Below, piece by piece: positions 14,832 through 25,027 of a DNA stretch of 64,000 nucleotides (positions are counted from its first letter, which is position 1; the number at the start of each line of letters is the position of its first letter). The notes beneath the pieces were generated by a model. It made no database searches and had not been told where the DNA came from. It saw only the letters and a list, made by a program, of their open reading frames with translations. Source of the stretch: a phage. The position numbers and the translations under genes were made by a program. Where the stretch lies: sequence record PZ445443.1. One strand, 5' to 3'.

Positions 14832-15160
14832 CAGAGATCATCGTTTCAACTGCAGGGTATGTATTCCTGACAATCATTGCGCTGGCTATTCTGGTGGCGG
14901 TGTATGGATTTGTTATCCTGCCTATTCTTGAGACATTTAGTTTGTGTCGGTGTTGGAGAAAAGCTTACGGACCACAACCGTGGAAAGACTGGTTCCATTT
15001 GGTGCGTATAGCGTTCTCTTATGCCTATGACCACTCCAGCAGTGCATGCGTAACCGGGTACCATGCCTACAACTGGAACTGGGAAGGTGTGGGAAGGTGG
15101 ACTGTTACAAAAACTATACCCTTGCGTTTATATAAAGGAAAGAACAAACTGGGCACCTGA
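14828..15160 (+). CDS. putative membrane protein
   Basis: Hydrophobic stretch IVSTAGYVFLTIIALAILVAVYGFVILPIL; ATGA overlap with upstream gene. Confidence 0.45.
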   Translation: MTEIIVSTAGYVFLTIIALAILVAVYGFVILPILETFSLCRCWRKAYGPQPWKDWFHLVRIAFSYAYDHSSSACVTGYHAYNWNWEGVGRWTVTKTIPLRLYKGKNKLGT

Positions 15161-15187
15161 TATTTTTAAATTGCCAAGTTGCCAGAA

Positions 15188-15228
15188 ATCAGGAGAATTT
15201 CTAAAATGGATTTTCTCCTGATATTTTG
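15188..15228 (+). terminator. putative intrinsic terminator
   Basis: 10 bp inverted repeat ATCAGGAGAA/TTCTCCTGAT followed by ATATTTTG, just after the last gene of the sub-block. Confidence 0.4.
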
Positions 15229-15469
15229 AACACATAGATATTTTAAAATTCTTAGAAAATCAGAAAATGGATCGAAAACTAAAATGGATTTTTTCAACAC
15301 AGGCGCGGAAAATTGTGCCAATCTATCTAGCCGTTTGCACCATATTCGAGATCACCGTTCCAGATTTCCTACACATACACACCTCTCCACCATACCTTTC
15401 TCCACTCACTCTTAGTGATTTATGACGGAAAACCCATCACTATCTTGAAGTTGCGGTGCAGTTTTCCAA

Positions 15470-15556
15470 GTACTCGATCTGTTTTTCGTTTCAAAGATTG
15501 AATTTTCTGAAAATTTTTCTCGATAAATTTCTCAGTACTCGATCTGTTTTTCGTTT
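15470..15556. repeat. direct repeats AGTACTCGATCTGTTTTTCGTTT (two copies, 65 bp apart)
   Basis: Identical 21-23 nt copies at about 15470 and 15535 inside a non-coding AT-rich region with further AAAATGGAT repeats. Confidence 0.6.
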
Positions 15557-15761
15557 TCTGAATCGGATTTTCTGGAAATCGTTCCGGCTCTCGACCTGAA
15601 ATTTTTGGGGACGAAATCGATTTTTCGTTTTCAGAAATGGATTTTTAAAATTTCTATATAGGAATATTTTAGTGGATACTATTTTATAGGAAATTGTTAC
15701 GGAGGGTAATTAGCGTGCTAATTAAATTTATTAAATGTGAGGAGTTCTCATTTAGAATTTT

Positions 15762-15778
15762 GAATGATAATCATTCTC
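15762..15778. promoter_or_regulatory. Fur-box-like palindrome
   Basis: GAATGATAATCATTCTC matches GATAATGATAATCATTATC at 15 of 16 aligned positions. Confidence 0.4.
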
Positions 15779-15892
15779 GTTTGCAGAATAACGGGCAGGC
15801 CCGGTGATTGTCTCCCGGCCCCTGTTGCCCCGGCTTGTTATTATAGTATCACACAGGACAAAGAAAGCAAGGATTTTTTGCATAAATTTTTA

Positions 15893-15917
15893 AATGATAA
15901 TGATAACCGTTCTCATT
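15893..15917. promoter_or_regulatory. Fur-box-like site
   Basis: AATGATAATGATAACCGTTCTCATT contains GATAATGATAA (about 16 of 19 to Fur consensus); second copy of a diverged tandem unit. Confidence 0.35.
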
Positions 15918-16302
15918 TTATGCAGCGCCCATCCCCGGTGGTTGTCTCCCCCGTCACCGGTGCCTGCCGTCCTTTCGATAGGTATATTGTGCTACCTGGC
16001 GGGGCCGCTGTCAACACCTTTCAAAAAAAAAATTATAACCAGGTGCGCCCACTGCCAGTACCTGGCGGGGCCAACCTGGCAGGTCCGCGCTATAAAGTGA
16101 ACAGATGAAGAAGAGGTACATAAATGAAAGGTAATATGATCCCCTGGAAAATGTAGCTATTAATGACGCTGAGGCTATCGCCCTGGTTGAAAAGGCTATG
16201 GCGGGAGCGTTGGAACATAAAGAAGAGTACGAAAAAATGATGGTTAACCTGGCAGGGGCGGCGGCTGGAGAATTCTGCCCAAAAAATAATTTTAACTAAT
16301 GG

Positions 16303-16331
16303 TTGACAGCTCGGACAGTTCTTGTTATTCT
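16303..16331 (+). promoter_or_regulatory. sigma70-like promoter
   Basis: TTGACA, 17 bp spacer, TATTCT. Confidence 0.5.
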
Positions 16332-16383
16332 TATCCTCGCAAGGTGAACAACACCACACTAATTAACAGAGAGGATAAAAATC

Positions 16384-16581
16384 ATGAACGCCTACGGAAT
16401 CAAAGTACGTCGCAGCACTCGCCAGGTGGTCACCGATCAAATGGTTTGCCGGGTGGATGTAACCATCAACAACGGGCAAGGCCTTTATAAATTTCGTCGC
16501 GGTCATAGCTATACCCTGCAACAGCTTAACCGTTGCTCCCTGACAAAAGGTCAGATCAACCACTGGTTTAATAAAAAATAA
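16384..16581 (+). CDS. hypothetical protein
   Basis: ATG after AGAGAGGA RBS, downstream of promoter. Confidence 0.55.
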   Translation: MNAYGIKVRRSTRQVVTDQMVCRVDVTINNGQGLYKFRRGHSYTLQQLNRCSLTKGQINHWFNKK

Positions 16582-16584
16582 ATA

Positions 16585-16613
16585 TTGACATGTGGTCTGA
16601 CACAAAATATACT
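16585..16613 (+). promoter_or_regulatory. sigma70-like promoter
   Basis: TTGACA, 17 bp spacer, TATACT. Confidence 0.55.
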
Positions 16614-16645
16614 GAAATCACAAAAGACACTAAGAGGATAAAATC

Positions 16646-17044
16646 ATGAAAACCACAACCTTTAATTTTGATAATGCCGACTTCTCTTTTTCTGATGTTA
16701 AAAGCTGCCGCCGTGATCGCGGATTCTACAAGGCCTATAATCTGGTGGGCCTGGACGATGACAATAATTTGCACGAAGTAGCTGAGATCCGGTATTATGC
16801 CGCCGCCAGCGGTAACACTCATTACTGTGTATTTTGGATTCACGACAACAAGAACAATAAGTACGGTTATACTGGCGGCAAGGCGAGCGGTCACGGTTAT
16901 GATAAAGCCAACGCTGCACTTGAAAGCGCATTAAGTGCCATGGGAATCACTGCCGACGGCTGGATCTATGAAGAAGAGTTTTTGGCGGCACTTGCTAACC
17001 ACTTGGGCTATAAAAAGCACATTGTAACATGCGCCCACGAATAA
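16646..17044 (+). CDS. hypothetical protein
   Basis: ATG after TAAGAGGA RBS. Confidence 0.55.
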   Translation: MKTTTFNFDNADFSFSDVKSCRRDRGFYKAYNLVGLDDDNNLHEVAEIRYYAAASGNTHYCVFWIHDNKNNKYGYTGGKASGHGYDKANAALESALSAMGITADGWIYEEEFLAALANHLGYKKHIVTCAHE

Positions 17045-17058
17045 AAAAAAAAAAATTA

Positions 17059-17086
17059 TTGACACGCTGCAAAATTCAAGTAAACT
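17059..17086 (+). promoter_or_regulatory. sigma70-like promoter with upstream A-tract
   Basis: A12 tract, TTGACA, 16 bp spacer, TAAACT; followed by hairpin GGCGGGAAACATCCCGCC. Confidence 0.55.
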
Positions 17087-17131
17087 AGGCACAAAAGGCG
17101 GGAAACATCCCGCCAACACAGAGGAAAAGCT

Positions 17132-17527
17132 ATGAATAAGAACGTACGCCGCATCATGAACGAACTGGCAAACGATGAAAAAATTATTGACATGCATTTG
17201 GTCAACATTTGCCGCCGTTGTGTAACATATAACAACCGCGCCGCAAAAGCGCGTGAGATGAACGCAAAAGGCACCTTAAAGCCCTTTCAGGTGGTTGTAA
17301 AATCTATAACTAATGCAGCAGGCCAGGCGCATGATCACAACAACGAGAGCACTAATATTGATCCGTCTTACGTAATGAAACGGATCCGGACTTGCAAGAA
17401 TAAAGAGCAGGTGTATAACGTCATAGATTGGCTTGATTCCATGGGCGACGTGGTTTATAATAGGTTTTCTGCAGCTATCGAGATCCAGCTTGACAGGTTG
17501 GACGGGAAAGTACTAAAAACTTATTAA
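17132..17527 (+). CDS. hypothetical protein
   Basis: ATG after AGAGGAAAAG RBS. Confidence 0.55.
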   Translation: MNKNVRRIMNELANDEKIIDMHLVNICRRCVTYNNRAAKAREMNAKGTLKPFQVVVKSITNAAGQAHDHNNESTNIDPSYVMKRIRTCKNKEQVYNVIDWLDSMGDVVYNRFSAAIEIQLDRLDGKVLKTY

Positions 17528-17528
17528 G

Positions 17529-17576
17529 CTTATTTTTAGATGGCCTTGACTCCAGGGCCATCAATAAAGTAAACTA
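17529..17576 (+). promoter_or_regulatory. repeated promoter/operator-like cassette, copy 1
   Basis: TTATTTTTAGATGGCCTTGACTCCAGGGCCATCAATAAAGTAAACT: T-rich tract, TTGACT, imperfect inverted repeat, TAAACT 18 bp downstream. Confidence 0.45.
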
Positions 17577-17608
17577 ACCACAGTTAAGCGGAAAAGGGGG
17601 GCTTGAAG

Positions 17609-17728
17609 ATGAGTACTACACGCCAACACACAAAGGTAACTATTATCGTTTGCATCATTGGTTACATCCTGGCGCAAATGTTGATGGGTAGCGCCAATGA
17701 TTTCGCAAAATTTTTCTTAAACTTTTAA
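17609..17728 (+). CDS. small hydrophobic peptide (39 aa)
   Basis: ATG after AAAAGGGGGG RBS; MSTTRQHTKVTIIVCIIGYILAQMLMGSANDFAKFFLNF; below ORF-track cutoff. Confidence 0.4.
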   Translation: MSTTRQHTKVTIIVCIIGYILAQMLMGSANDFAKFFLNF

Positions 17729-17756
17729 TTGACAAGCTAACTTAAATCAGTATAAT
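17729..17756 (+). promoter_or_regulatory. sigma70-like promoter
   Basis: TTGACA, 16 bp spacer, TATAAT. Confidence 0.6.
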
Positions 17757-17809
17757 ACTAAGCACATAAACGGGAAAACTTCCCAGAACACACAAAAGGA
17801 GAAAACATT

Positions 17810-18160
17810 ATGAATACTTCCATCACTATGACCACCGAAGAAAAAGCCCTGCAGATCGCCGCTCTGAAAAAACAGATTGCAGAACTGGAAGACAAGATCG
17901 ACAATTTTGAAATCGACGAAGACAAATACGATGATAAATATGATGAATGGTTGGACGAGATCCACGGCGAAATTATGATCGGTTGTATCTCTTTCCTCCC
18001 TTCACGTATCCTTAGGGAGCTGGATCCTATCGCTTACCGTTGCGGCTTTAGCGATTATATTGATAGCCTAGATATTGAAGATGACGAAGAATACCAGGAA
18101 TTGCAGACAGAGCTTGAAGAAGCAAAAGAAGAGCTTGCAGAACTGGAAGAAAACGAGTAA
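17810..18160 (+). CDS. hypothetical highly acidic protein (116 aa)
   Basis: ATG after AAAGGAGAA RBS; Asp/Glu-rich coiled-coil-like sequence. Confidence 0.55.
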   Translation: MNTSITMTTEEKALQIAALKKQIAELEDKIDNFEIDEDKYDDKYDEWLDEIHGEIMIGCISFLPSRILRELDPIAYRCGFSDYIDSLDIEDDEEYQELQTELEEAKEELAELEENE

Positions 18161-18210
18161 ATTTATTTTTAGATGGCCTTGACTCCAGGGCCATCAATAA
18201 AGTAAACTTT
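18161..18210 (+). promoter_or_regulatory. repeated promoter/operator-like cassette, copy 2
   Basis: Near-identical to 17529 copy. Confidence 0.45.
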
Positions 18211-18249
18211 ACACTGTTAACACTGAACTAATACAGAGGAGTTAAAACC

Positions 18250-18495
18250 ATGGCAGCACTAATCACCAAATATTATGCCCCTACCAACACCAAAAGCGCC
18301 CGTATCATGGTAAAAGGCTTCGGACGTAAAAAGGTTTACACCTGGGATTATTCCCTAGACATGGAAGACAACTACACCAACGCAATGACCGATTTTATTA
18401 ATGAACTAAATAAGCAGATCTTGACAAGTTATAAAGTGACAGATATTGCTTATATAGGTGAAGGCGGGATCTGTTTTGTGGGCATTGTGAAATAG
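18250..18495 (+). CDS. hypothetical protein
   Basis: ATG after AGAGGAG RBS. Confidence 0.55.
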   Translation: MAALITKYYAPTNTKSARIMVKGFGRKKVYTWDYSLDMEDNYTNAMTDFINELNKQILTSYKVTDIAYIGEGGICFVGIVK

Positions 18496-18545
18496 TTATT
18501 TTTTCGGTGGTCCTGGCTGCAGGGCCATCTATAAAGATAATTTAT
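18496..18545 (+). promoter_or_regulatory. repeated promoter/operator-like cassette, diverged copy
   Basis: TTATTTTTTCGGTGGTCCTGGCTGCAGGGCCATCTATAAAGATAAT shares the CAGGGCCATC(A/T)ATAAAG core. Confidence 0.4.
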
Positions 18546-18569
18546 TAACACCATGAAAGGAGAAAGTAC

Positions 18570-18923
18570 ATGATCAGCGGGGCTAGTTTTATTATTGGCG
18601 CTATTGCTACGGCTTTAATTGTAAACAAGATCCAGGATAAAAAGGAAAGAGGAAGTACCGCCCTTGCAGAATATCCATTTTGGACATTTAACGATAACGA
18701 AGATTATATTATAAAGTATAAAAATAAAGAGGGTGACCAAGTAACACCGCGACCGATCCCAGCTTACAAGATGCAGGAAACACTATACCGCCTGGAGGCG
18801 GGGGGCGCAAAAATTGTAGACTTTTGGGGATACGACCACACAGATCAGGAAGTTATAAAGCGCCGTATCCGGGCTATTCAGGCCAATATTGAAGTTAGCA
18901 AGGGGGGAATATATGAAAATTAA
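18570..18923 (+). CDS. hypothetical protein with N-terminal transmembrane segment
   Basis: ATG after AAAGGAGAAAG RBS; MISGASFIIGAIATALIV hydrophobic start. Confidence 0.5.
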   Translation: MISGASFIIGAIATALIVNKIQDKKERGSTALAEYPFWTFNDNEDYIIKYKNKEGDQVTPRPIPAYKMQETLYRLEAGGAKIVDFWGYDHTDQEVIKRRIRAIQANIEVSKGGIYEN

Positions 18924-19110
18924 TTTCGAGAAAATTGTAAAGCGCCCTCATGATTCCGAAGAGCTGCCAGAACGCCGCCAGCGTAACAATAAACTGAATA
19001 AGCCAAAAAGGTTTGGGAAGATCTGGCGTAATCATTATGATCGTAAATTGCCCGGCCTACTTTTGGAGCGTGAACGACAGGCAGAACGATACCGCCATAA
19101 AGACAAATAA
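18913..19110 (+). CDS. hypothetical basic protein
   Basis: ATG 18913 after AAGGGGGG RBS; Arg/Lys-rich. Confidence 0.45.
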   Translation: MKINFEKIVKRPHDSEELPERRQRNNKLNKPKRFGKIWRNHYDRKLPGLLLERERQAERYRHKDK

Positions 19111-19117
19111 CAACCAA

Positions 19118-19146
19118 CGCCCAGCCATTGTGCGGGGCTTTTTATT
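19118..19146 (+). terminator. rho-independent terminator
   Basis: GCCCAGC-CATTGT-GCGGGGC hairpin followed by TTTTTATTT. Confidence 0.6.
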
Positions 19147-19268
19147 TCTATCCTACGAATAGCGCCCCTGGTTGGCCCTGTAAGCGCCAAAAAGGCCCCC
19201 ACCTATGCAATCGCCCCCTTTAACCTGAAAACATCGCCCAGGGCCGTTTCATGGCGTTAAAAATATCA

Positions 19269-19296
19269 TTGACATCGTCAACAGGTTAGCTATACT
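19269..19296 (+). promoter_or_regulatory. sigma70-like promoter
   Basis: TTGACA, 16 bp spacer, TATACT. Confidence 0.55.
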
Positions 19297-19328
19297 AACC
19301 ACATCAAAGAGAGAAAGGAGTAAACGCC

Positions 19329-19601
19329 ATGCGTAAATTAAAAAATTTTGATAAAGTTGATGTTATCCTGAATAATTTTTACTACTGCAACAACAAGGCT
19401 ATTTGGTGGCGTGATAGTTCCACCGATAAAGTCAGGGCGCGCTTTCTTCAGGGGCACTGGCAAGGCCGCCCGGTGATTAAAATCATGGGGCAATTGGTAG
19501 CGTTTAAAAATTGCCGCCGTGTTGATGACGTTGAGGAGATTTTAAACATTTTGCGCCACAATAATTTAAAAAAAATAGTGTTGACAAGTAAGCCTCAATA
19601 A
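19329..19601 (+). CDS. hypothetical protein
   Basis: ATG after AAAGGAG RBS. Confidence 0.55.
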   Translation: MRKLKNFDKVDVILNNFYYCNNKAIWWRDSSTDKVRARFLQGHWQGRPVIKIMGQLVAFKNCRRVDDVEEILNILRHNNLKKIVLTSKPQ

Positions 19602-19608
19602 GTATACT
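19581..19608 (+). promoter_or_regulatory. sigma70-like promoter
   Basis: TTGACA, 16 bp spacer, TATACT; followed by hairpin GGCGGGAAAACTTCCCGCC. Confidence 0.55.
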
Positions 19609-19665
19609 TAAACACACAGGCGGGAAAACTTCCCGCCACTAACAAAGAAAATAGGAGAAAATATC

Positions 19666-20289
19666 ATGACCACCGTTAACATTACCGCAGGTTACAATTT
19701 ATCTTTCGACGTGCTGACCGACGAACAAAAAGAAAAAGCCGTTGAAATGGTCCGCGAAAGAGAAGAACACAGCGGGGATAACTTTTTTGCAGAAAGTGTA
19801 ATTGAATACTATAAAGAATATGTTTTTCCAGAGTATGGCCTTGAAGATACCGAAGTACATTGGTCAGGCTTTTGGTGCCAGGGTGACGGCGCGTCAATCA
19901 GTGCTGAAAACGTGGATTTAGAAAAATTTTTGCGTAAAGTAAAGGCCCTGACCAAGTTCCGATCAATTCGTCACTTGTTCGGCACAATGCACGATGGCGA
20001 GTTATCAGCCAGTGTTGAACGCGACAAGTACAGCCATTACAGCCATGAAAACACTGTAAGCGGGTACATTGATACCACTTGGCTAGATCTGACCGCCAAA
20101 CAAGAAAACAAAGTTGAAGAGCTGGAAGAGCTGATCACCGAGACGGTACGGGAGCTATCCCGCAAGGTTTACGTAGACCTGGAGGAGGCCTATCTTGAAC
20201 AGTTTACTACCGAAAACCTGATCGGCCTTATTGAAGCCAATGATTGGCGGTTTGATGTGGATGAATATGGGGAGATGAGTTTTTCATAA
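19666..20289 (+). CDS. hypothetical protein
   Basis: ATG after ATAGGAGAA RBS; 207 aa. Confidence 0.55.
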   Translation: MTTVNITAGYNLSFDVLTDEQKEKAVEMVREREEHSGDNFFAESVIEYYKEYVFPEYGLEDTEVHWSGFWCQGDGASISAENVDLEKFLRKVKALTKFRSIRHLFGTMHDGELSASVERDKYSHYSHENTVSGYIDTTWLDLTAKQENKVEELEELITETVRELSRKVYVDLEEAYLEQFTTENLIGLIEANDWRFDVDEYGEMSFS

Positions 20290-20297
20290 ATAAAGTG

Positions 20298-20325
20298 TTG
20301 CAATAATCTAAAAACCTGCTATATT
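20298..20325 (+). promoter_or_regulatory. sigma70-like promoter
   Basis: TTGCAA, 16 bp spacer, TATATT; followed by hairpin GGGGCGAGATGACTTGCCCC. Confidence 0.5.
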
Positions 20326-20378
20326 AAAACTCAAGGGGCGAGATGACTTGCCCCACACAAAACAAAGAGGATAACATC

Positions 20379-20759
20379 ATGAAAAACACCACCAAGGCCA
20401 TTGACACCGTTATGTTTAACCTGGTTACATTCCGTGAAGATATGAAAGATCTTCCACGTGAAACAGTGTGCGACCATATCGAAAACTATCGCAAACTTAT
20501 TAAAGAATTGCCATTGAAACGAGATCAGTACGCGGCTAACGCCATGCTTAACGCCATGATCAAAAAGATGATTCAGTGTGATTTAACTCTGGCCTATGAT
20601 TATGCAGGTGGTCGTTTTGCAGTATACAATCAGCCCGTGCCTGGTATGAGCACCACCGAAGAATTGCACGCGCTCAATCTAAAACAAGATGTGTGGGATA
20701 GTATGCCCCGCGTGGTGGTATGGGTAGAAAGCGGAAAGATTTACGGCGATAATTTTTAA
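20379..20759 (+). CDS. hypothetical protein
   Basis: ATG 20379 after AAGAGGA RBS. Confidence 0.5.
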   Translation: MKNTTKAIDTVMFNLVTFREDMKDLPRETVCDHIENYRKLIKELPLKRDQYAANAMLNAMIKKMIQCDLTLAYDYAGGRFAVYNQPVPGMSTTEELHALNLKQDVWDSMPRVVVWVESGKIYGDNF

Positions 20760-20826
20760 TCAGGTAACAGGCGGCGGCATATTTGCCGCCTTATTGTTAA
20801 TCAGAACTGTAAAAGAGGTACATAGA

Positions 20827-21198
20827 ATGGAATTTATCATTTTGGCTATATTAGTTGCCTTGTTTAACGCCTGGATCGCTGGCAAGATGGGTAGATCCGC
20901 CTTTTTATGGTTTATTATATCTATCTTCCTGGGAGTGGTTGCAACTATTGTATTGGTTATCCTTGCAATTGTTGACAAGGGGAATAATAGAAAGGGTAAA
21001 GTATTTTCAGACCTGTACGACGCTCAAACGTTTGTCAACGCCTATTATAGTGATCTTCCAGTCTCCCTACGTTGCAGCCTTGCACAACAGGTTTTCGATG
21101 AAGCTAAAACCAGAGATCACGCCCATGAGATTTGTTTAACTGAGGCGGATCGCCTATTTGAGAGGAATAGAAAATATGTGGACCAGCCGTTTAAATAA
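20827..21198 (+). CDS. putative membrane protein
   Basis: ATG 20827 after AAAGAGG RBS; two hydrophobic segments. Confidence 0.5.
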   Translation: MEFIILAILVALFNAWIAGKMGRSAFLWFIISIFLGVVATIVLVILAIVDKGNNRKGKVFSDLYDAQTFVNAYYSDLPVSLRCSLAQQVFDEAKTRDHAHEICLTEADRLFERNRKYVDQPFK

Positions 21199-21397
21199 TG
21201 CCACGTTAATTAACCCCTTTAGTGAAGATTTGAAGCCAGCCGCCTGGCGTGATGGATTCAATAACGAAAGCTTTATTTTCAGGCCTGATCTTAAGGAATT
21301 TTATAACAATGGATCGAACAACGACAGAGATAATTTTTCTTGTAATGTGCGTGGTGATAATACTCCTGGGGGCCATTGCAAACCACGTCACTGCTAA
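21176..21397 (+). CDS. hypothetical protein
   Basis: ATG 21176 after GAGGAA RBS. Confidence 0.4.
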   Translation: MWTSRLNNATLINPFSEDLKPAAWRDGFNNESFIFRPDLKEFYNNGSNNDRDNFSCNVRGDNTPGGHCKPRHC

Positions 21398-21417
21398 CAG
21401 GAGGGAAGGGGGAGACG

Positions 21418-21537
21418 ATGACACCCAAGGATAAGCCCCGCACCGATAAGGCGCGCCGTGTTATGGTATGGCTTGAGATCATCGCCCTTGAAATATTGTT
21501 AGGCGTAGGGATGTATTTTATCGCTGTAAGTAACTGA
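21418..21537 (+). CDS. small hydrophobic peptide (39 aa)
   Basis: ATG after AGGAGGGAAGGGGGAG RBS; followed by terminator. Confidence 0.4.
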   Translation: MTPKDKPRTDKARRVMVWLEIIALEILLGVGMYFIAVSN

Positions 21538-21541
21538 TAAC

Positions 21542-21578
21542 GGCCCCCGATCCCTGGGGGCCTAACTTTTTAATTTTT
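21542..21578 (+). terminator. rho-independent terminator
   Basis: GGCCCCC-GATCCCT-GGGGGCC hairpin followed by T-rich run. Confidence 0.65.
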
Positions 21579-21592
21579 TTTCTCCCTGGGTG

Positions 21593-21620
21593 TTGCAATC
21601 CGATCCAGAATATGGATAAT
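21593..21620 (+). promoter_or_regulatory. sigma70-like promoter
   Basis: TTGCAA, 16 bp spacer, GATAAT; spacer shares AATATGGATAATAA with promoter at 22759. Confidence 0.45.
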
Positions 21621-21679
21621 AACAATCAACGGGGAGACACTCCCCACCGCACAGACAAAGTTCCAAAAGGAGAAACAAA

Positions 21680-21880
21680 ATGAGCAATAATATCCGCGTT
21701 ATTAACTTCAAAAAAGAAGAAAAAATTGCTGTACTGGTTGATGGTCAAGAAATCTTCAAGGGCGATTATGAAGATCATCAAACGGCGATTAGTATCACTC
21801 GCGTGATTGGTTACCATAATTTCTACCCCCAAGGCGCTGAGGCAGCAGTTAAACGAATCAAAGAGATTGTAGGCCTGTAA
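21680..21880 (+). CDS. hypothetical protein
   Basis: ATG after AAAGGAGAAA RBS. Confidence 0.55.
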   Translation: MSNNIRVINFKKEEKIAVLVDGQEIFKGDYEDHQTAISITRVIGYHNFYPQGAEAAVKRIKEIVGL

Positions 21881-21930
21881 AATTTATTTTTAGATGGCCT
21901 TGACTCCAGGGCCATCAATAAAGTAAATTT
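21880..21930 (+). promoter_or_regulatory. repeated promoter/operator-like cassette, copy 3
   Basis: Near-identical to 17529 and 18161 copies; -10 candidate TAAATT. Confidence 0.45.
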
Positions 21931-21973
21931 AAACCCTGTTAAAATACCACGCAGTTAACAAGGAGTGATAGAC

Positions 21974-22273
21974 ATGTTTATCCAGGCTAATAATCTTTAT
22001 TTCTTTGATGGTCAGATCGTAGATGGTGTGGAAGTGGAGATCACCGGGTGCCCTGGCGGTCAGGCTATGACTTTCCGGAATAATGCCTTTGATGATTCTC
22101 ATATCGTTATGAAAATGGAAGTTACGAAGCTGGACGACAAGAAAGCACTCATTGACTATTCTGTGAAAGATCATCCAGACTACCACATGATCTATGGTGA
22201 TTTGTGCATTGTTGACCGTGACAAGGTAGGCGGCATTGTGATCGCTATTGTGAACGATGTTTTCTCAAACTAA
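21974..22273 (+). CDS. hypothetical protein
   Basis: ATG 21974 after AAGGAG RBS (track start GTG 21965). Confidence 0.5.
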   Translation: MFIQANNLYFFDGQIVDGVEVEITGCPGGQAMTFRNNAFDDSHIVMKMEVTKLDDKKALIDYSVKDHPDYHMIYGDLCIVDRDKVGGIVIAIVNDVFSN

Positions 22274-22290
22274 TTTCAGCAGGTGATTTT

Positions 22291-22641
22291 ATGAAAGTCA
22301 AACTATATTACCTTAATGAGCTTAACCCCCTTGCCCAGGTCCGCGCCCTGGCTAATACCTTGATTTGTGAGAAATCTGTATATTGTGTTGAGCTTAACGC
22401 CATGCGTGAACGTCTCAAAGGTGGTTACTTTGACATCCATGCTGCAATCAACGGCCTGAATATGGAATTTATACGCCTACGTAACAGCCGCCGGAATCTG
22501 GCAAGAATGGAACAAGATCCGGCCCACCTTCGTAAACTGGTTATTGAAAATCATCTGATGTTCAATGCCGAGGGTGATTATTACCATTTTAACCGCAAAC
22601 GTTGGTACCGTGGCGGCAATACAGACAAGGATGCAAAATAA
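22291..22641 (+). CDS. hypothetical protein
   Basis: ATG after AGGTGA RBS. Confidence 0.5.
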   Translation: MKVKLYYLNELNPLAQVRALANTLICEKSVYCVELNAMRERLKGGYFDIHAAINGLNMEFIRLRNSRRNLARMEQDPAHLRKLVIENHLMFNAEGDYYHFNRKRWYRGGNTDKDAK

Positions 22642-22677
22642 GGCCCCTAGCAGGGCCTGCAGCGATATAATCACATA

Positions 22678-22710
22678 AAGGCCATGCAACCGCATGGCCT
22701 TTATTATTTT
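22678..22710 (+). terminator. rho-independent terminator
   Basis: GGCCATGC-AACC-GCATGGCC hairpin followed by TTTATTATTTT. Confidence 0.7.
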
Positions 22711-22758
22711 GGCGTTACAACGGCATACGGAGCGCTTAAAAATTTTTTAAATAAGTAC

Positions 22759-22786
22759 TTGCATCATGTCCGACAATATGGATAAT
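22759..22786 (+). promoter_or_regulatory. sigma70-like promoter
   Basis: TTGCAT, 16 bp spacer, GATAAT. Confidence 0.45.
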
Positions 22787-22845
22787 AAGAGTTGTCGAAG
22801 GGGCTATGCCTCCAATCATTAACCGGATAGATAGGAGTTAAAATC

Positions 22846-23130
22846 ATGGCTATTGTTACCGCTGGTGATGTAGTAGAAATGGAAGCAAAATACTTAAAAA
22901 CTGGTATGCATATCCTACGCAACGATCTTGAACTGGTCCTGACAATGGTTGACTATAACCCAGGGCAAGATTATCCAAGTGTTGACTACTTTTTTGAGTA
23001 TGTCGATGAAGAGCTAAAAGAGGATGAGGCCTACTGCGGAGAATTCTGCAACTACTTTTGCCCTGACGAGGTTGTAAAAGTTATCTACCAACCTGGCGTA
23101 CCTTTCCCGCTACACGCTATCAATAAATAA
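22846..23130 (+). CDS. hypothetical protein
   Basis: ATG after ATAGGAG RBS. Confidence 0.55.
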   Translation: MAIVTAGDVVEMEAKYLKTGMHILRNDLELVLTMVDYNPGQDYPSVDYFFEYVDEELKEDEAYCGEFCNYFCPDEVVKVIYQPGVPFPLHAINK

Positions 23131-23185
23131 ACCTGGCGGGGCCGAAAAGGCCCCCAATTATGAAAATAAAGAGAGGCAAATCATC

Positions 23186-23419
23186 ATGATGGAACAAATT
23201 AAACGCGCCGAGGCTATTAATGGCAACGTGATCTATTTTGTCAGCAAAAACGAAAAAGGCGTACCCTATGCGGCGGTAATAGTACAGCCTGACGGCGATT
23301 ATTGGTGCACTGTGTACGGCGCTTATTCTTTTGGGCGTCCAGTGCATGATAAAATTTTGAAAGTAGCGAACCCTACCGGGAAAAATATCACAGCAGAAAA
23401 ATTTTTTGAAAATAGTTGA
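23186..23419 (+). CDS. hypothetical protein
   Basis: ATG after AAGAGAGG RBS; 5' UTR hairpin GGGGCCGAAAAGGCCCC. Confidence 0.55.
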   Translation: MMEQIKRAEAINGNVIYFVSKNEKGVPYAAVIVQPDGDYWCTVYGAYSFGRPVHDKILKVANPTGKNITAEKFFENS

Positions 23420-23443
23420 CACGACCATATAAGACTGTAGTAT
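23416..23443 (+). promoter_or_regulatory. sigma70-like promoter
   Basis: TTGACA, 16 bp spacer, TAGTAT. Confidence 0.45.
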
Positions 23444-23496
23444 ATAAATCAAAGGGGGGCAACAAGCCCCACCAACCACAAAGAGGATAAAAAATC

Positions 23497-23676
23497 ATGG
23501 CTATTATTGCAAAGACTGAGATCGTAGGCTTAGATTCTATTCTTCTCGCATATGAGGAAGCTATAGAAATGTATGTGGTTTCCTATGGTGAATATATCCG
23601 TGAATATAAATCTATTGATCTAGCTTTTGAATGTTATATTCGCCAGGTCAATAAAGCATATGATGATTATCGTTAA
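23497..23676 (+). CDS. hypothetical small protein (59 aa)
   Basis: ATG after AAGAGGATAA RBS with promoter and 5' hairpin; below ORF-track cutoff. Confidence 0.5.
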   Translation: MAIIAKTEIVGLDSILLAYEEAIEMYVVSYGEYIREYKSIDLAFECYIRQVNKAYDDYR

Positions 23677-23682
23677 AATAGT

Positions 23683-23710
23683 TTGACAACAGTCAACAAT
23701 CTGGTAAAGT
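23683..23710 (+). promoter_or_regulatory. sigma70-like promoter
   Basis: TTGACA, 16 bp spacer, TAAAGT; followed by hairpin GCGGGAATACTTCCCGC. Confidence 0.45.
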
Positions 23711-23758
23711 GTACTACATAGCGCGGGAATACTTCCCGCCATTAATGAGGATAATTTA

Positions 23759-23896
23759 ATGAAAACTTTCAACGCAACAGTCTCGACAATTGGTTATATT
23801 ATTACAGTACAAGCCGTGGATCTGGTAGCAGCAGCAAACAAGATTAAAAAGATGATTCCGCCAGGCAGTGAATTTTCCGTTTGGAAAGTAAAATAA
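23759..23896 (+). CDS. hypothetical small protein (45 aa)
   Basis: ATG after TGAGGA RBS; below ORF-track cutoff. Confidence 0.4.
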   Translation: MKTFNATVSTIGYIITVQAVDLVAAANKIKKMIPPGSEFSVWKVK

Positions 23897-23899
23897 ATC

Positions 23900-23927
23900 T
23901 TGACAATAGTTTATTACTTGATAGACT
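23900..23927 (+). promoter_or_regulatory. sigma70-like promoter
   Basis: TTGACA, 16 bp spacer, TAGACT. Confidence 0.4.
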
Positions 23928-24094
23928 GTATTTCGTAGGGCGGGGCAATAAGGCAACGCCCATTAATGATGGTAGAATCATGTTAGATAAAATTTTCACG
24001 GTTGTAGTAGTTGGCCTGGCATTATAGGTTGGAGTGGTTGCAACTATGGCTAACATGATCCTATCTTCCCATGGTATCGGTTAAGGTGAATCAA

Positions 24095-24310
24095 ATGATC
24101 ACGAATAAGACAGGTAAAACGGAATTCTTGCGCGGCTTGCAGATCGGCAAGCCAGAGATCTGGTATTGCACTAAAACACCACGTGACGAAATGAAAGACT
24201 TCACCGCCACGCTGCAACGGGTAAAGATATCCATCACGCAGAAAAAGGCCTTGATAGTGGTGGAAGGTGAGATCCCTCAAACCGTTGTTATAGTTGAGCG
24301 TACAGCATAG
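24095..24310 (+). CDS. hypothetical protein
   Basis: ATG 24095 after AAGGTGA RBS. Confidence 0.45.
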   Translation: MITNKTGKTEFLRGLQIGKPEIWYCTKTPRDEMKDFTATLQRVKISITQKKALIVVEGEIPQTVVIVERTA

Positions 24311-24401
24311 TTTAATTTATAGCGATACCTGAAAATTAACCAATAAATCATAAACAGGCGGTTACCGCCGCCTTAAACGTAGCAGAAAGAGGCTAGACAC
24401 A

Positions 24402-24686
24402 ATGAAAAAGATGATCGCAGTAGTTGCCCTGGTTGTTGGACTTAATGCACCTGTAATGGCTAAAGAGCTGGCAAAAGAGGTTAATCTAACGGATATCCAT
24501 GCCGTCAATCAAATCGGGGTTACTTATCGCTTATGCCTTGCCGCTAAAACTTTTAATGACGGTACAACAGAGTACTACGGATTCGAAGGTATCCGGTGCG
24601 GTGAGCTTGCTCGCGACCTTAAGGAAGATCCAGACCTGGAAGATCTGCCCATCACCGTAAACGGTAAAGCTTACGTAAACCGTTAA
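24402..24686 (+). CDS. putative secreted protein
   Basis: N-terminal signal-peptide-like MKKMIAVVALVVGLNAPVMA; ATG after AAAGAGG RBS. Confidence 0.55.
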   Translation: MKKMIAVVALVVGLNAPVMAKELAKEVNLTDIHAVNQIGVTYRLCLAAKTFNDGTTEYYGFEGIRCGELARDLKEDPDLEDLPITVNGKAYVNR

Positions 24687-24688
24687 CC

Positions 24689-24823
24689 ATGAGAAAGATA
24701 ATCATCACCTTGGGGATTGTGGCGGGATCGCTGGCGCTCTTTCCCCTTATGGTTAGGTATGTGCTGATCAGTATTGTCCTGGTAGTCAGTGATCTATTGG
24801 AAACGGTTGGCACCTTGTTTTAA
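24689..24823 (+). CDS. small hydrophobic peptide (44 aa)
   Basis: ATG 2 nt after upstream stop; MRKIIITLGIVAGSLALFPLMVRYVLISIVLVV...; no strong RBS. Confidence 0.3.
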   Translation: MRKIIITLGIVAGSLALFPLMVRYVLISIVLVVSDLLETVGTLF

Positions 24824-24835
24824 AGAGCGGTAAAA

Positions 24836-25027
24836 ATGAATATCGAACAAGTTAGAAAAGTATTAGCGGTACTGCGTTATCATAATCATAGAAAGGTCAT
24901 AGACGATCCTGATTATGTTGATTCAAGCCTGGAAGGGGATACACTACAAGCTATAAGTAACATGCAAGAATTGCTAAAGCGCATGACAGAGAAAAACCGA
25001 CCGGACTACATAGGCGAAAAAATATAA
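24836..25027 (+). CDS. hypothetical protein
   Basis: Co-oriented ORF followed by hairpin. Confidence 0.45.
   Translation: MNIEQVRKVLAVLRYHNHRKVIDDPDYVDSSLEGDTLQAISNMQELLKRMTEKNRPDYIGEKI

Follow-up and report, generated by a model that had tools for sequence, protein, structure and literature searches.

In a 64,000-nucleotide stretch of phage DNA (sequence record PZ445443.1; hereafter the window), four copies of an intergenic cassette follow the stop codons of small early open reading frames (ORFs), and the sense-strand RNA of each folds into a two-part hairpin, which in three of the copies encloses a pair of sigma70 promoter-like hexamers. The DNA is that of an rV5-like E. coli phage, and its identity to about 120 phages of the genus Vequintavirus, EdH4, Murica, LL12 and rV5 among them, is 93-95% over this region, the early, ORFan-rich arm that is the counterpart of rV5 ORFs ~179-194. 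All its genes lie on the + strand, and those that flank the cassettes are annotated as hypothetical proteins throughout. The copies and their parts are as follows, with predicted folding free energy (dG), z-score relative to shuffled sequences and bit score under a covariance model of the four copies.

17527..17575, + strand: cassette copy 1, full bipartite hairpin; dG -20.7 kcal/mol, z -4.6, 82.9 bits
17539-17548 and 17553-17562: upper stem of copy 1, with tetraloop ACTC at 17549-17552
17527-17536 and 17566-17575: 5' and 3' arms of the lower stem of copy 1
17537-17538 and 17563-17565: 5' side and 3' side (AAT) of the internal loop of copy 1
17546-17551 and 17570-17575: sigma70-like hexamers TTGACT and TAAACT of copy 1
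18160..18208, + strand: cassette copy 2, hairpin as in copy 1; dG -24.3 kcal/mol, z -5.8, 83.1 bits; lower stem extendable to 18157-18212 with one bulge, taking in the upstream stop codon
18179-18184 and 18203-18208: hexamers TTGACT and TAAACT of copy 2
18494..18542, + strand: cassette copy 3 (diverged); dG -24.0 kcal/mol, z -5.3 (minus strand z -0.75), 75.1 bits; two G.U pairs in the upper stem (GGUGGUCCUG/CAGGGCCAUC), loop GCUG, lower-stem pairs swapped between A-U and U-A; -35-like hexamer degraded to CTGGCT, -10-like hexamer GATAAT
21881..21929, + strand: cassette copy 4, hairpin as in copy 1 with an 11 bp lower stem; dG -23.6 kcal/mol, z -5.8, 84.4 bits
21900-21905 and 21924-21929: hexamers TTGACT and TAAATT of copy 4

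An earlier note on this DNA had described a near-identical repeat after the stops at 17527, 18160 and 21880, with a diverged copy after the stop at 18495, and the coordinates, shuffles and a repeat search bear this out. Two copies of the 45-mer TTATTTTTAGATGGCCTTGACTCCAGGGCCATCAATAAAGTAAAC, at 17530-17574 and 18163-18207, are exact, and a third, at 21884-21928, has one mismatch; 100 shuffles give a chance expectation of 0.00. The repeat search returned a four-member family of 63 nt, whose diverged member at 18492-18554 is 62% identical (45-mer equivalent ~18497-18541). Each copy begins 1-3 nt past the stop of the ORF ending at 17527, 18160, 18495 or 21880, and its 3' end lies 34-45 nt ahead of the next start codon. 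With filters switched off, a search of the entire window by the four-copy covariance model identified no further copy; its minus-strand matches were the same four sites at less than half the score. No cassette was found outside Vequintavirus by blastn with a 60-mer query, and a generic sliding-window hairpin scan proved too noisy for use.

On the + strand, the RNA of all four copies adopts one design, a bipartite hairpin of 20-23 bp (dG -20.7 to -24.3 kcal/mol; z -4.6 to -5.8), while folding of the complementary strand is poor (z -0.75 to -2.2). The upper stem comprises 10 bp, formed by GAUGGCCUUG and CAGGGCCAUC with one U.G pair, and is capped by a tetraloop. It is separated by a 2x3 internal loop from an A/U-rich lower stem of 7-13 pairs (consensus 8), in which the upstream U-tract pairs with AAAGUAAA(U/C), a conserved U.G included. 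The "-10" region AAAGUAAA is the 3' partner of the upstream T-tract in this second stem. The inverted repeat TGGCC..GGCCA singled out by the earlier note is real, but it is only part of the 10 bp stem, at the top of the larger hairpin.

Conservation was assessed on the copies that the four-copy covariance model recovered from the window and 12 related phage loci (13 sources): 51 in all, of which 38 are distinct. Standard pairs filled 98.4% of pair cells, compared with 33-57% when the partners were slid, and pairing of the upper helix was 100%. Compensatory double changes were observed at four pairs of the lower stem (GC/AU/GU, UA/CG, UA/GU/AU and AU/UA). G.U pairs accounted for 98 cells over 7 pair columns and A.C for 9 cells, the latter in the two outermost columns only, an asymmetry that points to RNA of the sense strand. 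All four positions of the tetraloop vary. The 3' arm of the upper stem is invariant except for one singleton, and the segment CAGGGCCAUC.AU.AAAG, comprising this arm and the start of the lower stem, is essentially invariant. Copy 3 retains every pair, with A-U to G.U, C-G to U.G and U.G to C-G changes in the upper stem and A-U/U-A swaps in the lower stem, and these pair-keeping changes are compatible with sense-strand RNA only. Because the invariant segment is the would-be promoter spacer and only half of the dyad, the selected feature is best seen as the hairpin in the sense-strand RNA, and we conclude with high confidence that the cassette is such a conserved hairpin. A minus-strand reading of the cassette was rejected on sequence grounds. 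No Rfam family matched over the cassettes at E up to 1 in a search of 15000-25000.

The genes and signals around the cassettes place these hairpins inside transcription units.

17059-17086: predicted promoter of the 131-amino-acid ORFan, TTGACA-16-TAAACT (rV5 P194)
17132..17527, + strand: early ORFan of 131 amino acids, its stop codon directly 5' of copy 1
17576..18208, + strand: 633 bp module between copies 1 and 2, ending with copy 2; it holds a 39-amino-acid ORF (17609-17728), a strong promoter (17729-17756) with a hairpin in the 5' untranslated region (5'-UTR), and a 116-amino-acid ORF (17810-18160)
18250..18495, + strand: ORFan of 81 amino acids between copies 2 and 3
18570-18923 and 18913-19110, + strand: two ORFs 3' of copy 3
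~19115-19135: terminator closing the ORFs downstream of copy 3, a position transferred from the annotation of the EdH4 record and not measured in the window
21680..21880, + strand: 66-amino-acid ORF 5' of copy 4, first gene of a unit from a promoter at 21593-21620 to a terminator at 22675-22704
21974-22273 and 22291-22641, + strand: two ORFs 3' of copy 4

Strong consensus promoters lie at 17059, 17729, 19269, 19581 and 21593, most of them followed by a short 5'-UTR hairpin, and canonical terminators at 20769, 21542 and 22675. Each cassette stands behind the first gene of a promoter-terminator unit and is thus internal to a predicted polycistronic transcript. Since the ORFs at 18570..19110 end at the annotated terminator, copies 2 and 3 are both internal to one predicted unit that starts from 17729. 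The protein of 81 amino acids between these copies was found at two loci only in an IMG/VR search.

The 5'-UTR hairpins constitute a second repeat family in the region. Short GC hairpins GCGGGAAAACTTCCCGC occur at 17097-17129, 17770-17802, 19620-19652 and 23723-23755, about 10 nt 3' of strong sigma70 promoters, which gives most early transcripts a 5'-UTR stem-loop; similar GCGGGAAATGGTTTCCCGC hairpins follow promoters in phage alia. Among the other early genes, a protein of 207 amino acids (19666-20289) has homologues of 43-61% identity in jumbo phages (coliphages of ~350 kb and phages of Klebsiella and Salmonella), and one of 59% identity in phage Av-05; one record labels it "YeeU-like antitoxin". 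Upstream, a non-coding stretch at 15460-15645 holds three direct repeats of ~65 nt (AGTACTCGATCTGTTTTTCGTTT...), and a long non-coding gap of Av-05 (L003 17156-18466) carries similar TTCTCGATCG...TTTTCGATTT repeats. Judged by their sequence, the two sets are iteron-like and could mark a replication origin. In addition, 17-22 GenBank records labelled "Campylobacter phage" (MG0656xx, host C. jejuni) match 17000-22500 of this E. coli Vequintavirus DNA at 93-95% identity; their host labels look doubtful.

The promoter-like parts proposed by the earlier note, TTGACT followed after an 18 bp spacer by TAAACT or TAAATT, are present at 17546-17575, 18179-18208 and 21900-21929, and the hairpin covers this entire region. 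TTGACT-18-TAAACT matches the consensus at 9/12 positions, with a suboptimal spacer of 18 bp. TTGAC is invariant in copies 1, 2 and 4, the consensus hexamer TTGACA appears in 8 of the 38 distinct sequences, and the predicted promoter at 17059-17086 (rV5 P194) likewise has TAAACT as its -10. The distal consensus of UP elements is AAAWWTWTTTT, which the T-tract AAATTTATTTT fits about 2 nt out of register. In sequences of the copy 3 type the -35-like hexamer is lost (CTGGCT, CTGGTA) and the hairpin is fully kept. The Certrevirus CB7 paper describes ordinary sigma70 promoters only. An overlapping sigma70 promoter is plausible from these motifs, if weak.

The shape of the hairpin recalls the sites at which host RNase III processes the early mRNA of phage T7. 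For comparison, the T7 sites were folded around their cleavage coordinates. Promoter coordinates followed the NC_001604 record. The predicted folds of T7 R0.3, R1, R1.1 and R4.7 have an upper stem of 9-10 bp, a tetraloop, a 2x3 internal loop and a lower stem, which is the architecture predicted for the cassette. Like the cassette copies, the T7 early sites (R0.3, R0.5, R1, R1.1 and R1.3) are intercistronic, belong to polycistronic early transcripts of the host RNA polymerase and number several per early region, and some T7 sites overlap promoters, the 3' arm of R4.7 running into the phi4.7 promoter. The two groups share no sequence homology. Near-identity among copies is a feature of the cassette and not of the T7 sites, and the cassette resides in a phage of another family, a myovirus without an RNA polymerase of its own.

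The likeness extends to individual base pairs. Escherichia coli RNase III targets have been described as an 11 bp helix between cut site and tetraloop, with a distal box of U-A followed by a stringently required U.G, and a proximal box that prefers G-C, A-U/U-A, A-U and A-U/U-A at positions 1-4 and excludes G/C at position 2; internal loops restrict cutting to one strand, leaving a protective 3' hairpin (Pertzev and Nicholson, PMC1540722). In substrates of the R1.1 type, a (quasi-)continuous double helix extends for about two turns and contains an internal loop (PMC1540722), and the fold predicted for the cassette has the same elements in its 10 bp upper stem, 2x3 loop and lower stem of 8-13 bp, supported by covariation. 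Counted from the loop, the cassette pairs are G-C, U-A, U.G, C-G, C-G, G-C, G-C, U-A, A-U, G-C and A.A, and those of T7 R1.1 are C-G, U-A, U.G, A-U, C-G, U.G, G-C, G-C, A-U, A-U and U.C. Thus U-A then U.G follow the loop-closing pair in both, and copies 1, 2 and 4 conform to the distal box and to the rule of at least 11 bp (10 Watson-Crick or wobble pairs plus A.A to the internal loop). At position 2 of the proximal box the cassette has an allowed A-U, and the non-Watson-Crick A.A at position 4 is comparable to the U.C of native R1.1. Positions 1 and 3 depart from the preferred pairs. The resemblance is structural and rule-based, and cleavage of the cassette is a prediction drawn from it.

Our best explanation is composite, and we hold it at about even confidence: the cassette would be an intercistronic hairpin for RNA processing and 3'-end stabilisation, probably through host RNase III, overlapping a possible weak promoter. 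The cassette would be transcribed within a polycistronic early mRNA by host RNA polymerase from the strong upstream promoter, and the read-through RNA would fold into the 20-23 bp two-part hairpin with the architecture of the T7 early sites. Most probably, host RNase III would then cut the 3' side of the internal loop, approximately between AAU and AAAG, so that the upstream cistron would keep a protective 3'-terminal hairpin of 10 bp and be parted from the downstream cistron. The sigma70-like motifs may re-initiate transcription for the downstream gene, free of the hairpin, as the promoter-early stem-loops (PeSLs) of T4-like phages do. A transcript from the embedded promoter would hold the 3' arm only, which means that the hairpin exists in read-through RNA only.

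Several points weigh against this explanation. Positions 1 and 3 of the proximal box are U-A and G-C in place of the preferred G-C and A-U. Copy 3 fails the distal-box rule, with C-G at position 2, and has G.U at proximal-box position 2; by the published rules (PMC1540722) it should be a weaker or poor substrate, yet its hairpin is conserved. The region contains 28 promoter-like matches where 14.7 are expected, and the cassette is no better than many that arise by chance. RNase III is dispensable for T7. For the rV5-like phage LL12, a Keio screen found only lipopolysaccharide genes to be required, with no dependence on rnc; RNase III is at most dispensable there, and the screen is uninformative on its role. 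The rV5 authors list the cassette among neither promoters nor terminators (rV5 Table S4), and a literature search returned no transcript end mapping or transcriptome for Vequintavirinae or rV5-like phages.

Comparison of related phages bears on recombination at the repeats. In phage ime the 633 bp module between copies 1 and 2 is missing and one cassette is left at the junction: window 15000-17575 aligns with L014 467-3047, and window 18162-24000 with L014 3001-8811. A three-way alignment assigns the left flank of the junction to copy 1 and the right flank to copy 2, placing the crossover within the identical 45-mer. Phage ECP26 has the gene order of ime. The indel in ime and ECP26 is bounded by cassettes, whether it was a deletion or an insertion, and recombination between copies is documented. 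Because the copies are near-identical, they would also serve as homologous recombination sites that delete or move the ORFans between them. The alternative raised in the earlier note, that the cassette is a processing or recombination hotspot, is favoured by its T7 RNase III site shape and by the cassette-bounded 633 bp indel.

Two further observations concern rearrangement and assembly at this locus. Phage rV5_ev146 (L015), compared with window 17120-17621, lacks the gene for 131 amino acids and cassette 1 and diverges past 19058; it was rejected as support for recombination between copies, its deletions in the region having ends away from the cassettes. Fragmentary assemblies such as OR844913 and the records of typing phage 5 and phage C15 have their start or end exactly at a cassette (17526-17530, ~21942), which suggests that assemblers break at the repeat.

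The strongest competitor is a composite of the PeSL type, in which the cassette would be a functional sigma70 early promoter whose stem-loop attenuates or terminates upstream transcription and so insulates the ORFans, with no part for RNase III; we regard this as possible though unlikely. PeSLs, known from T4-like phages (Arbiol et al. 2010, PMC2839356; Comeau et al. 2014, PMC4122927), combine a sigma70-like promoter, whose -35 is preceded by an AT-rich tract, with a stem-loop that covers the hexamers or lies between them, and span the interval from a stop codon to the next Shine-Dalgarno sequence or ATG. They sit in ORFan-rich regions and mediate indels, as in RB49 and phi1 (PMC2839356). The cassette fits this description (PMC2839356), being a composite intergenic element between a stop codon and the next Shine-Dalgarno sequence or ATG, with an AT-rich tract, sigma70-like hexamers and a stem-loop over them. 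It is likewise concentrated among the small ORFans of an early/hyperplastic region, and cassette-bounded indels separate related phages, recombination between copies removing or swapping the flanked ORFans in ime and ECP26 as it does in RB49 and phi1. The two also differ. PeSL promoters are of consensus strength, and published descriptions of their stems speak of polyG/polyC and of effective termination, whereas the cassette has a weak match (9/12, 18 bp spacer) nested whole, from the UP-like tract to the -10, in a long bipartite A/U and G/C hairpin with an internal loop. The loop holds its -35, which one copy lacks. Descriptions of PeSLs are confined to T4-like phages.

Analogous hairpins occur in other phages and bear on this comparison. 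In Av-05 and TH18 (Vequintavirinae), bipartite hairpins of 20 bp or more follow stop codons directly; their loops hold the -10 of the enclosed TTGACT-16-TAGAAT and TTGACG-16-TATAAT. In alia, a phi92-like Justusliebigvirus, a hairpin encloses TTGACA-17-CATAAT with the -35 in the loop, the register of the present cassette. The positions of these hairpins in Av-05/TH18 and alia are as follows.

L003 (Av-05) 19806-19873, 22858-22956 and 24029-24096: analogous hairpins
L016 10319-10386, 13384-13446 and 14553-14620: analogous hairpins
L017 10705-10775: analogous hairpin

They are 5-11 kcal/mol stabler on the sense strand, and the Av-05/TH18 family shows one G-C to A-U compensatory change. Like the cassette, they have 20-23 bp in two parts, start directly past a stop codon among early ORFans, enclose sigma70 hexamers and recur 2-3 times per genome; a transcript from their promoters, too, would hold the 3' arm only. 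They differ in having unrelated sequences, loops of 6-8 nt and internal loops of 1x1 or 2x2, and, in Av-05/TH18, the -10 rather than the -35 in the loop. Being also undescribed, these elements extend the class rather than explain the cassette. Their near-consensus promoters, in other genera, mean that promoter function of the cassette is not to be dismissed; they speak for the promoter part of our best explanation more tellingly than the cassette motifs themselves, and they count in favour of a PeSL-type composite, as does the cassette-bounded deletion in ime and ECP26. Against such a composite, there is no U-run behind either the upper hairpin or the full one, the cassettes were not flagged in the terminator scan, copy 3 keeps the hairpin without a -35, the promoter score and spacer are weak, and attenuation alone leaves the invariant 3' arm and the distal-box U.G unexplained.

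A hairpin read by a factor other than RNase III, such as a phage RNA-binding protein or nuclease, a translational regulator or a barrier to 3'-exonucleases, with hexamers that arise fortuitously from A/T-rich arms, seems to us improbable. It would account for the strong conservation of structure, for the sequence-invariant 3' arm and for copy 3, which breaks the RNase III box rules and yet is conserved, and 9/12 promoter matches are common by chance. It leaves aside the exact shape and the distal box that the cassette has in common with T7 R1.1, and promoter hexamers that recur in unrelated hairpins of three lineages are unlikely to be fortuitous.

The model put forward in the earlier note was a set of co-regulated promoters with a shared operator; taken to mean that the inverted repeat is bound as DNA by a dimeric phage or host regulator, we consider it very improbable. 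In its favour, four genes are preceded by an identical sequence whose dyad overlaps the -35 and the spacer, and the promoter-like parts do exist, if marginal (9/12, 18 bp spacer); the operator is unsupported. As DNA the dyad is imperfect, with T.G in the + strand and C.A in the - strand. Copy 3 alters one half-site only (GATGGCC to GGTGGTC), keeping the RNA wobble and breaking the DNA symmetry, and it has lost the -35. The G.U to A.C asymmetry of 98:9 also speaks against it. Covariation of the lower stem, made of the T-tract and the -10 region, is not predicted by an operator, and the would-be spacer, the most conserved segment, is not explained by promoter function alone. A palindromic DNA operator was rejected on these sequence grounds, copy 3 differing at three upper-stem positions, all in the 5' arm and two of them within the GATGGCC to GGTGGTC change, with wobble on the + strand only.

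Least probable of all is an intrinsic (rho-independent) terminator: the GC-rich 10 bp stem is stable and the Murica GenBank record has "terminator" features of 45 nt where copies 3 and 4 lie, but the tails AAUAAAGUAAAC (+) and UAAAAAUAA (-) give no U-tract on either strand, the cassettes are not among the 15 terminator-like sites scanned in 16500-23000, so that the Murica label is unsupported, the rV5 authors and EdH4 annotators omit the cassette while listing true terminators nearby, and the downstream genes would be left without a strong promoter.

The cassette thus resembles two known kinds of element, the RNase III sites of T7 and the PeSLs of T4, and calls for no new mechanism; neither kind has been described before in the Vequintavirus group. 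The element bears on early-gene regulation in rV5-like phages, which are widely used as candidates for therapy and biocontrol. The published rV5 tables of promoters and terminators omit it, and one GenBank record wrongly labels it a terminator. In practical terms, the repeat marks gene modules that are prone to deletion and apparently causes assembly breaks.

If the cassettes are RNase III sites overlapping promoters, they would provide a second, independent example of T7-style mRNA processing, in a myovirus, and would link such processing to the modular shuffling of ORFans known from PeSLs. More speculatively, and we think this rather doubtful, large lytic coliphages that depend on host RNA polymerase may as a general device mark their gene boundaries with "promoter-inside-hairpin" cassettes, which would have evolved independently in rV5-, Av-05-, phi92- and T4-like phages. 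At such a cassette RNase III would cut or stabilise the read-through RNA, and the same DNA would re-initiate hairpin-free transcription. Every ORFan would on this view form a unit of expression that is insulated and portable, and its borders would also act as sites of recombination.

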